Shown piece after piece: positions 19,145 to 24,998 of a stretch of DNA of 64,000 bases. The notes under the pieces were generated by a model. The model had not been told where the DNA came from. It saw only the letters and a list, made by a program, of their open reading frames with translations, and searched no databases. This DNA comes from Escherichia coli (lineage in GTDB: Bacteria > Pseudomonadota > Gammaproteobacteria > Enterobacterales > Enterobacteriaceae): assembly GCF_044647545.1 (NCBI RefSeq), contig NZ_CP172818.1; one strand, given 5' to 3'. Each line of letters starts with the position of its first letter. The stretch's first letter is position 1. The position numbers and the translations under genes are program-made.

Positions 19145-20584
19145 ATGTCAGTACCCGTTCAACATCCTATGTATATTGATGGACAGTTTGTTACCTGGCG
19201 TGGAGACGCATGGATTGATGTGGTAAACCCTGCTACAGAGGCTGTCATTTCCCGCATTCCCGATGGTCAGGCCGAGGATGCCCGTAAGGCAATCGATGCA
19301 GCAGAACGTGCACAACCAGAATGGGAAGCGTTGCCTGCTATTGAACGCGCCAGTTGGTTGCGCAAAATCTCCGCCGGGATCCGCGAACGCGCCAGTGAAA
19401 TCAGTGCGCTGATTGTTGAAGAAGGGGGTAAGATCCAGCGGCTGGCTGAAGTCGAAGTGGCTTTTACTGCGGACTATATCGATTACATGTCGGAGTGGGC
19501 ACGGCGTTATGAAGGCGAGATTATTCAAAGCGATCGTCCAGGAGAAAATATTCTTCTGTTTAAACGTGCGCTTGGCGTGACTACCGGCATTCTGCCGTGG
19601 AACTTCCCGTTCTTCCTCATTGCCCGCAAAATGGCTCCCGCTCTTTTGACCGGTAATACCATCGTCATTAAACCCAGTGAATTTACGCCAAACAATGCGA
19701 TTGCATTCGCCAAAATCGTCGATGAAATAGGCCTTCCGCGCGGCGTGTTTAACCTTGTTCTGGGGCGTGGTGAAACCGTTGGGCAAGAACTGGCAGGTAA
19801 CCCAAAGGTCGCAATGGTCAGTATGACAGGCAGCGTCTCTGCAGGTGAAAAGATTATGGCGACTGCGGCGAAAAACATCACCAAAGTGTGCCTGGAACTG
19901 GGGGGTAAAGCACCGGCTATCGTAATGGACGATGCCGATCTTGAACTGGCAGTCAAAGCCATCGTTGATTCACGCGTCATTAATAGTGGGCAAGTGTGTA
20001 ACTGTGCAGAACGTGTTTATGTACAGAAAGGCATTTATGATCAGTTTGTCAATCGGTTGGGTGAAGCGATGCAAGCGGTTCAATTTGGTAACCCCGCTGA
20101 ACGCAACGACATTGCGATGGGGCCGTTGATTAACGCCGCGGCGCTGGAAAGGGTCGAGCAAAAAGTGGCGCGCGCAGTAGAAGAAGGGGCGAGAGTGGCG
20201 TTGGGGGGCAAGGCAGTAGAGGGGAAAGGATATTATTATCCGCCGACATTGCTGCTGGATGTTCGCCAGGAAATGTCGATTATGCATGAGGAAACCTTTG
20301 GCCCGGTTCTGCCGGTGGTCGCATTTGACACGCTGGAAGAGGCTATCTCAATGGCGAATGATAGTGATTACGGCCTGACCTCATCAATCTATACCCAAAA
20401 TCTGAACGTCGCGATGAAAGCCATTAAAGGGCTGAAGTTTGGTGAAACTTACATCAACCGTGAAAACTTCGAAGCTATGCAAGGCTTCCACGCCGGATGG
20501 CGTAAATCCGGTATTGGCGGCGCAGATGGCAAACATGGCTTGCATGAATACCTGCAGACCCAGGTGGTTTATTTACAGTCGTAA
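19145..20584 (+). CDS. aldA: Lactaldehyde dehydrogenase (NAD-dependent aldehyde dehydrogenase A)
   Basis: 479-aa ORF with aldehyde dehydrogenase catalytic Cys/Glu motifs; recognised as AldA. Confidence 0.9.
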   Translation: MSVPVQHPMYIDGQFVTWRGDAWIDVVNPATEAVISRIPDGQAEDARKAIDAAERAQPEWEALPAIERASWLRKISAGIRERASEISALIVEEGGKIQRLAEVEVAFTADYIDYMSEWARRYEGEIIQSDRPGENILLFKRALGVTTGILPWNFPFFLIARKMAPALLTGNTIVIKPSEFTPNNAIAFAKIVDEIGLPRGVFNLVLGRGETVGQELAGNPKVAMVSMTGSVSAGEKIMATAAKNITKVCLELGGKAPAIVMDDADLELAVKAIVDSRVINSGQVCNCAERVYVQKGIYDQFVNRLGEAMQAVQFGNPAERNDIAMGPLINAAALERVEQKVARAVEEGARVALGGKAVEGKGYYYPPTLLLDVRQEMSIMHEETFGPVLPVVAFDTLEEAISMANDSDYGLTSSIYTQNLNVAMKAIKGLKFGETYINRENFEAMQGFHAGWRKSGIGGADGKHGLHEYLQTQVVYLQS

Positions 20585-20593
20585 TGAATGAAA

Positions 20594-20617
20594 GAGGCGG
20601 AGGTTTTTCCTCCGCCT
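20594..20617. terminator. Bidirectional hairpin between convergent aldA and gapC
   Basis: Stem GAGGCGGAGG / CCTCCGCCT with a TTTTT loop immediately after the aldA stop. Confidence 0.55.
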
Positions 20618-20624
20618 GTGCTGG

Positions 20625-21625
20625 TCAGAGTTTGGCGAATTTTTCCAGGGTACGAATGAGTTGAGTGACGAAACCATACTCGTTATCGTACCAGGCGACG
20701 GTCTTCACCAGTTGTAAATCGCCCACTGCGGTGATTTCCGTTTGGGTCGCATCAAACACCGAACCGAAATGGCTGCCAATGATATCGGAAGAGACAATTT
20801 CTTCGTCGGTATAACCAAACGATTCGTTATCGGTTGTTGCTTTTTTAAGTGCGTTATTCACCTCTTCAGCAGTCACTTTTTTCCCCAGGATAGACACCAG
20901 CTCGGTCACTGAACCTGTTTTCACTGGCACGCGTTGCGCATGGCCTTTAAGTTTGCCGCTAAGTTCGGGGATCACCAGACCAATGGCTTTTGCCGCACCT
21001 GTAGTGTGGGGAATGATATTTTCTGCCGCTGCACGTGAAGCGCGTAAATCTTTACCTCGCGGACCATCCACCAGTGACTGAGTGCCGGTATAGGCATGAA
21101 TGGTCGTCATCGTGCCGACTTCTATTCCGAAACTGTCATGCAAGGCTTTTGCCATCGGAGCAAGACAGTTAGTGGTACAGGATGCCACGGAAACAATGGT
21201 GTCGTTGCATCCAGAGTGTCGTCATTGACGTTATAAACGATAGTTTTCATTTCACCGGCAGGGGCGGAAATCAACACCTTCTTCGCGCCAGCATCGAGAT
21301 GCGCCTGAGATTTCTCGGCGGAGGTATAAAAGCCAGTACATTCGACAATGATTTCTGCGCCTTTCGCTTTCCACGGAATATTTTTAGCCTCTTTTTCGGC
21401 GTAAACCGCGATACTTTTCCCATCAACGATAAGTGAATCTTCCGTAAAATCAACGCTCCAGGGGAACGGTCCGTAGTTTGAATCATGTTTCAGCAGGTAG
21501 GCGAGAATTTTTGGGGAAGTGAGATCATTAATAGCGACAATGTCTATGTTGCTTTTGACTTCAAGTAATCGACGCAACACCAGTCGACCGATACGACCAA
21601 AACCGTTAATACCAACTTTACTCAT
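20625..21625 (-). pseudogene. gapC: Glyceraldehyde-3-phosphate dehydrogenase paralogue split by a frameshift
   Basis: Two overlapping minus-strand ORFs in different frames (21122..21625 is the N-terminal NAD-binding part, 20625..21188 the C-terminal part carrying [10 protein letters not shown]). Confidence 0.8.
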
Positions 21626-21813
21626 GGTCTTCTCCTGTCAGGAACGTTCGGATGAAAATTGATCCTTTCCAGGCTTAGACCAGGATGGCGGGATGGGCAA
21701 TCTACATTCTTGCAGTGAAACGTAACGTACTGAAAACGGGTGAACAATATTTAATGAAATTTTAAGAAAAGCCCGTTATGTTAACGGAAAATTATGTTAA
21801 AGCAGGAAATGTT

Positions 21814-22344
21814 ATGGGAAATAAATACTCAAGGTTACAAATCAGCATTCACTGGCTGGTCTTTTTGCTGGTTATCGTAGCGTATTGCGCAATGGAGTTT
21901 CGTGGTTTCTTCCCACGTAGCGATCGGCCCCTCATCAACATGATTCATGTTTCCTGTGGCATCTCAATTCTCGTACTGATGGTGGTTCGTCTTTTGTTAA
22001 GGCTGAAATACCCAACCCCGCCGATTATACCTAAGCCAAAACCGATGATGACGGGACTGGCGCATTTGGGACATTTGGTGATCTATCTCCTGTTTATTGC
22101 GCTGCCAGTGATTGGTTTGGTGATGATGTATAACCGGGGTAACCCGTGGTTTGCGTTTGGTATGACGATGCCTTATGCATCAGAGGCCAATTTCGAACGG
22201 GTTGATAGCTTAAAGTCGTGGCATGAAACGCTGGCGAATCTGGGATACTTTGTCATCGGGTTGCACGCTGCGGCTGCACTGGCACACCACTATTTCTGGA
22301 AGGACAACACACTTCTACGCATGATGCCGCGTAAACGTTCCTGA
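21814..22344 (+). CDS. cybB: Cytochrome b561
   Basis: 176-aa ORF from the internal ATG at 21814; four-helix membrane protein with conserved histidines. Confidence 0.85.
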   Translation: MGNKYSRLQISIHWLVFLLVIVAYCAMEFRGFFPRSDRPLINMIHVSCGISILVLMVVRLLLRLKYPTPPIIPKPKPMMTGLAHLGHLVIYLLFIALPVIGLVMMYNRGNPWFAFGMTMPYASEANFERVDSLKSWHETLANLGYFVIGLHAAAALAHHYFWKDNTLLRMMPRKRS

Positions 22345-22833: not shown

Positions 22834-23029
<196 letters not shown>

Positions 23030-23041
<12 letters not shown>

Positions 23042-23090: not shown

Positions 23091-23291
23091 GAAAACAGAA
23101 AGTCTCAGGCACCCGCAGGCATCCTATGAGGTTTCCTTAGGGACGAAAATAATCACTTGACGAAATTGCGTGCTGTTTTCCAGAATTTTTCGTCATTCGG
23201 TTTAGCCGTTCGTTACTCTCTTCATTCCAATGGCATTATTCTTCTCTGCCATAATTGTTGTAAAAATGTGACGCAAAGAGGTTTTTGGTCA

Positions 23292-23357: not shown

Positions 23358-24998
23358 ATGAATACAACTCCCTCACAGCGATTAGGTTTTTTGCATCACA
23401 TCAGGCTGGTTCCGTTATTTGCCTGCATTCTTGGCGGTATCTTAGTTCTATTAGCATTAAGTTCTGCTCTGGCTGGCTATTTCCTCTGGCAGGCCGATCG
23501 CGATCAGCGTGATGTTACTGCGGAGATTGAGATTCGGACCGGGTTAGCGAACAGTTCAGATTTTTTGCGTTCAGCCCGGATCAATATGATTCAGGCCGGT
23601 GCTGCGAGTCGTATTGCGGAAATGGAAGCAATGAAGCGAAATATTGCGCAAGCCGAATCGGAGATTAAACAGTCGCAGCAAGGTTATCGTGCTTATCAGA
23701 ATCGGTCGGTGAAAACACCTGCTGATGAAGCCCTCGACACTGAATTAAATCAACGCTTCCAGGCTTATATCACGGGTATGCAACCGATGTTGAAATATGC
23801 CAAAAATGGCATGTTTGAAGCGATTATCAATCATGAAAGTGAGCAGATCCGACCGCTGGATAATGCTTATACCGATATTTTGAACAAAGCCGTTAAGATA
23901 CGTAGCACCAGAGCCAACCAACTGGCGGAACTGGCCCATCAGCGCACCCGCCTGGGTGGGATGTTCATGATTGGCGCGTTTGTGCTTGCCCTGGTCATGA
24001 CGCTGATAACATTTATAGTGCTACGTCGGATCGTCATTCGTCCACTGCAACATGCCGCACAACGGATTGAAAAAATCGCCAGTGGCGATCTGACGATGAA
24101 TGATGAACCGGCGGGTCGTAATGAAATCGGTCGCTTAAGTCGTCATTTACAGCAAATGCAGCATTCACTGGGGATGACTGTAGGGACCGTTCGACAGGGC
24201 GCGGAAGAGATTTATCGTGGCACCAGCGAAATTTCCGCTGGCAATGCGGACCTTTCATCTCGCACCGAAGAACAAGCGGCGGCAATTGAACAAACTGCCG
24301 CCAGCATGGAGCAACTCACTGCGACGGTGAAACAGAATGCAGATAACGCGCATCATGCCAGCAAACTGGCGCAGGAGGCTTCTATTAAAGCCAGCGATGG
24401 CGGGCAGACGGTTTCCGGTGTAGTAAAAACGATGGGCGCTATCTCCACGAGTTCGAAGAAAATTTCTGAGATCACCGCCGTCATCAACAGTATTGCTTTC
24501 CAGACGAATATTCTGGCACTGAATGCTGCCGTTGAAGCCGCGCGAGCGGGTGAGCAAGGACGTGGATTTGCCGTTGTCGCCAGCGAAGTACGGACACTCG
24601 CAAGCCGCAGCGCTCAGGCGGCGAAAGAGATTGAAGGCTTGATCAGTGAATCAGTCAGATTAATTGACCTGGGATCGGATGAGGTGGCAACGGCAGGGAA
24701 AACCATGAGCACTATTGTTGATGCCGTCGCGAGTGTCACACATATCATGCAGGAAATTGCCGCCGCCTCGGATGAACAAAGCAGAGGCATAACGCAGGTT
24801 AGCCAGGCGATTTCAGAAATGGATAAGGTGACGCAACAGAATGCTTCTCTGGTAGAAGAGGCCTCAGCGGCGGCGGTGTCCCTTGAAGAACAGGCGGCAC
24901 GATTAACTGAGGCGGTGGACGTATTCCGTCTGAACAAACATTCTGTGTCGGCAGAACCTCGCGGAGCGGGTGAATCAGTTAGTTTCGCTACGGTGTGA
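23358..24998 (+). CDS. trg: Methyl-accepting chemotaxis protein III (ribose/galactose transducer)
   Basis: 546-aa ORF with two transmembrane segments, HAMP domain and the conserved chemoreceptor signalling and methylation region. Confidence 0.9.

Follow-up and report, generated by a model that had tools for sequence, protein, structure and literature searches.

A lineage-specific single-base deletion in gapC of Escherichia coli

In this work, we analysed the gapC locus in a 64,000-nucleotide stretch of Escherichia coli DNA (contig NZ_CP172818.1 of assembly GCF_044647545.1), hereafter referred to as the window. We found that gapC, the gene for a type I glyceraldehyde-3-phosphate dehydrogenase (GAPDH) and the "type 1", bacterial-type GAPDH paralogue of E. 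coli, lacks a single G in this window, and we hold with high confidence that it is an ordinary unitary frameshift pseudogene specific to one lineage. The inactivation was already known in kind, as gapC is a classic pseudogene of E. coli, and also in particular, as RefSeq labels this allele "frameshifted". What is newly added here is that the lesion is independent of the one found in K-12 and is present in 82 of 5,426 complete genomes, and that lesions of the K-12 type are common in natural isolates.

The gapC locus and its single lesion

The gene order aldA-gapC-cybB in the window matches those of FDAARGOS_497, K-12, BL21, and the relatives that have an intact gapC. The features of this locus are as follows (window positions).

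19145-20584, plus strand: aldA, as given by the open reading frame (ORF) listing
20595-20617, no strand assigned: GC-rich hairpin in the spacer that separates convergent aldA and gapC, identified by a terminator scan (stem of 9 bp, 7 of them GC pairs)
20625-21625, minus strand: gapC pseudogene of 1001 nt, one short of the expected 1002 nt; type I glyceraldehyde-3-phosphate dehydrogenase
20625-21221, minus strand: C-terminal reading frame, open from 21221; the listed ORF has 187 aa and starts at GTG 21188 (20625-21188)
21096-21098, minus strand: CAT codon for the catalytic His177, in the C-terminal frame
21122-21625, minus strand: N-terminal ORF of 167 codons, with 139 native residues (the NAD-binding Rossmann part) and 28 out-of-frame residues followed by TAG
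21177-21179, minus strand: TGT codon for the catalytic Cys150, within the SCTTN motif and 10 codons 3' of the deletion (gene positions 447-449)
21208, minus strand: site of the 1-nt deletion in codon 140, where GAT GGC AAC became GAT GC AAC
21626-21777, minus strand: region upstream of gapC, shared with the divergent cybB and including an AGGAG ribosome-binding site, undecayed
from 21778, plus strand: cybB, as given by the ORF listing

The hairpin between aldA and gapC is likely a bidirectional terminator. The 152 nt upstream of gapC have no differences from AR_0077 and one to two differences from A13 and Q5, and all three of these strains have an intact gap. In K-12, the gapC-cybB intergenic region is bound by sigma-S RNA polymerase (PMC4447067). 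With its promoter and ribosome-binding site intact, the gapC locus in the window is probably still transcribed. An IS1A copy is located in this intergenic region, directly upstream of gapC, in BL21 (L003 2134-2831), where gapC is intact, and in the chicken isolate AHM9C68I (L012 1-46), which has a K-12-type pseudogene; this insertion may affect the promoter activity of gapC or cybB. On the other side of the region, the start of cybB is ambiguous (window 21778-22344): the longest ORF starts at ATG 21778 and has 188 aa, and the cybB annotated by PGAP in the matching genomes is shorter (531 nt, 176 aa).

The first-pass annotation had described two ORFs in different frames, with an overlap at 21122-21188, and the ORF listing agrees with this description. 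The C-terminal ORF encodes the catalytic domain and is set in the -1 frame with respect to the N-terminal part. When the reading frames are considered instead of the listed ORFs, both frames are open over 100 nt (gene positions 405-504; window 21122-21221), which exceeds the overlap between the listed ORFs. The same annotation had attributed the break to a single frameshift that spares the catalytic motif, and had proposed an alignment to intact gapC to locate the indel. In the alignment to BL21, K-12 C600, and FDAARGOS_497, the only indel of the window gene was one G absent from GATGGCAAC at gene position 418. Window position 21208 is the surviving G of the original GG; on the plus strand, the change is a GCCA minus one C. 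An uninterrupted frame of 333 codons is absent from the window gapC, as the frame is broken at codon 140 and a stop follows after 167 codons. The codons for Cys150 and His177 are both present.

The first-pass annotation had also seen no other obvious decay and had named multiple additional lesions as the outcome that would speak against its reading. No in-frame stop and no further indel were found in gapC when it was aligned to the intact BL21 gapC and to K-12. A sequencing or assembly error behind the deletion was considered and ruled out, because the deletion is carried by 82 independent complete genomes.

When the missing G is put back, the gene has 1002 nt and a full-length ORF of 333 aa, so that one indel does restore a full-length GAPDH paralogue, as had been expected. 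Intact genes of 1002 nt were available for comparison from BL21, A13, FDAARGOS_1253, Q5, GF130, 20Y000092, MS 57-2, and AR_0077. Pfam searches of the restored protein found Gp_dh_N (PF00044) and Gp_dh_C (PF02800), both at full length. Among the separate ORFs, the N-terminal one alone has only Gp_dh_N (E 3e-36), and the C-terminal one alone has Gp_dh_C at full length (E 2e-58). The restored gene has 16 synonymous and no non-synonymous differences from the intact gap of Q5 and GF130; therefore, the restored protein is identical in amino-acid sequence to the GapC of other E. coli (WP_021540957.1 of Q5 and GF130). Relative to BL21 (WP_000048667.1), three non-synonymous and 52 synonymous differences were found.

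The restored protein is also identical at 330 of 333 positions to PDB 7C5F ("EcGAPDH1"). EcGAPDH1 is an active GAPDH, in which the substitution C150A kills the activity and H177A lowers it about 8,000-fold (PMC8615399). The window gapC has the same Cys150/His177 pair as intact E. coli GapC/EcGAPDH1 (BL21 WP_000048667.1, PDB 7C5F and related entries, and WP_021540957.1). However, the intact gene encodes an enzyme, whereas the window copy is one nucleotide short and cannot.

Translation of the frameshifted gene

The deletion plausibly arose by replication slippage, with one G lost from the GG at codon 140. This loss was probably a single event, which took place in an ancestor of the ST648-containing clone and has been inherited vertically since. 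Transcription and translation initiation would probably continue from the intact promoter and ribosome-binding site. The predicted translation product has 167 residues, namely, 139 native residues of the NAD-binding part and 28 missense residues, and would be without Cys150, His177, and the whole catalytic domain. Because such a product has no catalytic domain, we infer that no GapC activity is made and that this activity is absent in the carriers. Glycolytic GAPDH is supplied by gapA, which is located outside the window, and the loss of gapC would be tolerated for this reason.

As an alternative to a recent pseudogene, the first-pass annotation had offered programmed or slipped translation. 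Programmed -1 ribosomal frameshifting or transcriptional slippage could allow some full-length, functional GapC to be made, and there are several observations in its favour. A return to the native frame would take a -1 shift. The lesion is flanked by the 100 nt that are open in both frames; no damage is seen in the remaining gene, its promoter, or its ribosome-binding site; and one weakly shift-prone A AAG motif is found at gene position 477. The overlap (gene positions 405-504) was scanned for homopolymers, single-tRNA slip sites, and heptamers of the form X XXY YYZ. Neither such a heptamer nor a homopolymer of at least 5 nt was found, and the A AAG at 477 was the only hit. The Cys150 codon is on the 5' side of this motif, so a shift there would leave residues 140-159 as missense, the active-site Cys included. 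A search for Rfam elements at E <=1 over 20400-22000 found only a 17-bit chance match to Mu-gpT-DE, for which the gathering score is 49; thus, no Rfam element supports a recoding site.

Comparison with known recoding systems of E. coli points in the same direction. In dnaX and IS1 insAB', a slippery heptamer (A AAA AAG type) is combined with stimulators, and different lineages conserve the frameshift. In these two genes, the latter of which is annotated beside gapC in BL21, the overlapping frames stand at -1 to each other, as in the window gapC. Unlike in dnaX and IS1 insAB', the overlap in the window gapC has neither a heptamer nor such conservation. Conservation across lineages is expected of a recoding site, but the opposite pattern was observed here: the frameshift is limited to a single allele (82 genomes), and neither the 4,472 genomes with the in-frame sequence nor the closest intact alleles have it. 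Moreover, in strain EM10-18-28 an insertion sequence (IS) has been added to the deletion. Taken together, we consider recoding very improbable, and this part of the earlier proposal was not supported.

Another possibility is that the two ORFs are expressed as separate polypeptides that assemble into an active split enzyme. The break is near the boundary of the two domains, and each ORF keeps a complete Pfam domain. However, no Shine-Dalgarno motif was found before any of the candidate starts GTG 21188, ATG 21155, and ATG 21110, and none of these starts adjoins the upstream TAG for translational coupling. Separate translation of the C-terminal ORF is unlikely because of the lack of this motif. 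Furthermore, the tail of the N-terminal fragment consists of the 28 missense residues. In the fold of type I GAPDH, the helix at the C-terminus is packed against the NAD domain, and because of this packing the two parts of a protein split at residue 140 would not be autonomous domains. A split enzyme is thus hardly credible for this locus, and an ordinary frameshift pseudogene is the reading that we adopt below.

Distribution of the deletion and history of the allele

A 73-nt probe that spans the deletion site was found at 100% identity in exactly 82 of the 5,426 complete E. coli genomes, and the version of this probe with the extra base (i.e., the in-frame GG) was found in 4,472. For identity over the whole gene, 82 of the 5,426 genomes are at least 99% identical to the window gapC, and 5,313 are in the range of 90-95%. 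At least 60 complete genomes are 100% identical over gapC, and these include the strain "ST648" and IMT16316, the latter of which has been typed as ST648 (PMC6003029). Over 7,001 positions, only two differences were found between the window and FDAARGOS_497; gapC is 100% identical between the two, and the locus in FDAARGOS_497 is labelled as "gap ... frameshifted" by PGAP/RefSeq. Based on these sequence comparisons, the deletion appears to be a marker of the clone that includes ST648, and its carriers probably form a single clade. Our literature search on gapC in ST648 found nothing specific.

The low whole-gene identity to other E. coli is explained by a divergent tract with a mosaic distribution.

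20552-21183, minus strand: divergent (mosaic) tract, made up of the aldA-gapC spacer and the 3' 56% of gapC

This tract has sharp boundaries and is approximately 8.7% different from the mainstream E. coli alleles, compared to approximately 1.4% for the 5' 440 nt of gapC. Between the restored gapC and that of BL21, six differences are located in positions 1-440 and 49 in positions 441-1002. Relative to K-12, there are 7-13 mismatches per 100 nt in the tract against a background of 0-5, and the raised divergence is limited to about window 20552-21250. The mosaics vary by strain; for instance, AR_0077 agrees with the window over gene positions 1-440 and 723-1002 and departs from it over 501-722. 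These patterns look like the result of intragenic recombination between two old classes of gapC alleles. The 5' edge of the tract is about 25 nt from the deletion. Elsewhere in the window, comparison with K-12 gives 11-25 mismatches or indels per 100 nt for the short segments 22950-23037, 23135-23225, and 24526-24625 (hokB/yncP region and trg), against the same background of 0-5.

The divergent 3' allele, as detected with a 101-nt probe from the tract, was found at >=99% identity in 94 genomes. About 12 genomes have this allele without the deletion, and all seven of those inspected have an intact 1002-nt gene that is annotated as functional. Because the divergent allele is also found undeleted, the deletion postdates the allele, and it is limited to one clone. 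This result upholds the recent pseudogene, which was the other half of the first-pass proposal. There are no substitutions among the at least 60 carriers that are 100% identical over gapC, and one carrier, EM10-18-28 (L015, 987-2195), has the G deletion of the window together with an insertion of ISVsa5 (IS4-like) in gapC at about gene position 711-720, with an apparent 9-bp target duplication. This insertion on top of the deletion is further decay in one strain, and is what a dead gene would be expected to show.

The distribution also bears on whether gapC could be a contingency locus, in which an indel toggles the gene on and off as a reversible phase-variable switch. Phase variation does use 1-nt indels. 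However, the indel here is in a GG dinucleotide, not in a long homopolymer or simple-sequence repeat, and the nearest run of at least 5 nt is at gene position 241. As judged from the counts, the 82 genomes that are >=99% identical over the gene would be the same set as the 82 carriers of the deletion; because the two counts are equal, no revertants are apparent. In addition, each of the nearest intact alleles that were inspected is separated from the window gapC by 14 or more further differences, and no on/off pair was seen within the clone. We therefore give phase variation almost no weight, and the fixed loss of a gene in one clone remains our explanation.

A plasmid location of gapC was considered as well and set aside, as the five matches in the plasmid collection (H281-H285) are uninformative. 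Three of these records are chromosome-sized (4.8-4.9 Mb) and mislabelled, and the other two are 250-390 kb and non-mobilizable; the latter two are probably chromosomal fragments.

Independent lesions of gapC in E. coli

The gapC of K-12 is a documented pseudogene, described as "interrupted" or as a "pseudogene" (PMC4512719, PMC4447067). It resides in the same locus between aldA and cybB as that of the window, and the two are both well preserved otherwise and both annotated as pseudogenes by PGAP. However, their lesions differ. In K-12 (C600, L002 3001-4001), codon 39 is changed from AAA to TAA and one nucleotide is deleted from an A-run at position 744, and the GG at 418 is intact; in the window, the G deletion at 418 is the sole lesion. 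The two alleles are about 6% different overall, with the differences mostly in the 3' 560 nt. The possibility that the window allele is the K-12 pseudogene was rejected on these grounds, and the window is not K-12 DNA. As the lesions are unlike those of K-12, the inactivation in the lineage of the window is independent, and the allele comparison indicates that gapC has been lost independently at least twice in E. coli.

Using exact-match probes, we found the K-12 nonsense segment in 1,152 of the 5,426 complete genomes, a count that covers the TAA allele of K-12 only, and the segment with the K-12 A-run deletion in 1,034. Humans, pigs, chickens, pork, and river water are among the sources of the carriers of K-12-type lesions, and three natural isolates were checked base by base. 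Truncated gapC alleles also occur (H40, H250). An additional 1-nt deletion at position 988 was observed in the K-12-type gapC of AHM9C68I.

In the passage of PMC2949598 that follows Espinosa-Urgel and Kolter (1998), laboratory strains are described as having a truncated gapC and environmental isolates an intact one, with expression of gapC preferentially in fresh water. This expression pattern raises the question of whether gapC loss is adaptive rather than neutral, in the sense that host-associated lineages have convergently inactivated a paralogue that is expressed in the environment. At least two independent inactivations (82 genomes with the ST648-type deletion, and the 1,152 and 1,034 genomes with the K-12-type TAA and A-run deletion, respectively), together with the truncations and the human, pig, chicken, and river isolates among the K-12-type carriers, are consistent with this explanation. 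However, two or a few events in 5,426 genomes also fit the neutral loss of a dispensable gene combined with clonal expansion. Moreover, most lineages keep gapC intact under strong purifying selection, as seen in the 52 synonymous and three non-synonymous differences between alleles. For these reasons, we regard adaptive loss as unlikely. The broader claim, that the loss in at least two successful host-associated lineages is adaptive or marks a shift from an environmental phase of the life cycle, and is not neutral decay or laboratory domestication, is in our view quite improbable.

The independence of the lesion and the spread of the K-12-type lesions have no bearing on recoding or on any new mechanism and matter little in this respect. 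For the biology of E. coli, the G deletion could serve as a lineage marker of the clone that includes ST648. In addition, the finding that natural isolates commonly carry K-12-type lesions (more than 1,000 genomes) qualifies the description of gapC as intact in the environment and mutated in the laboratory.
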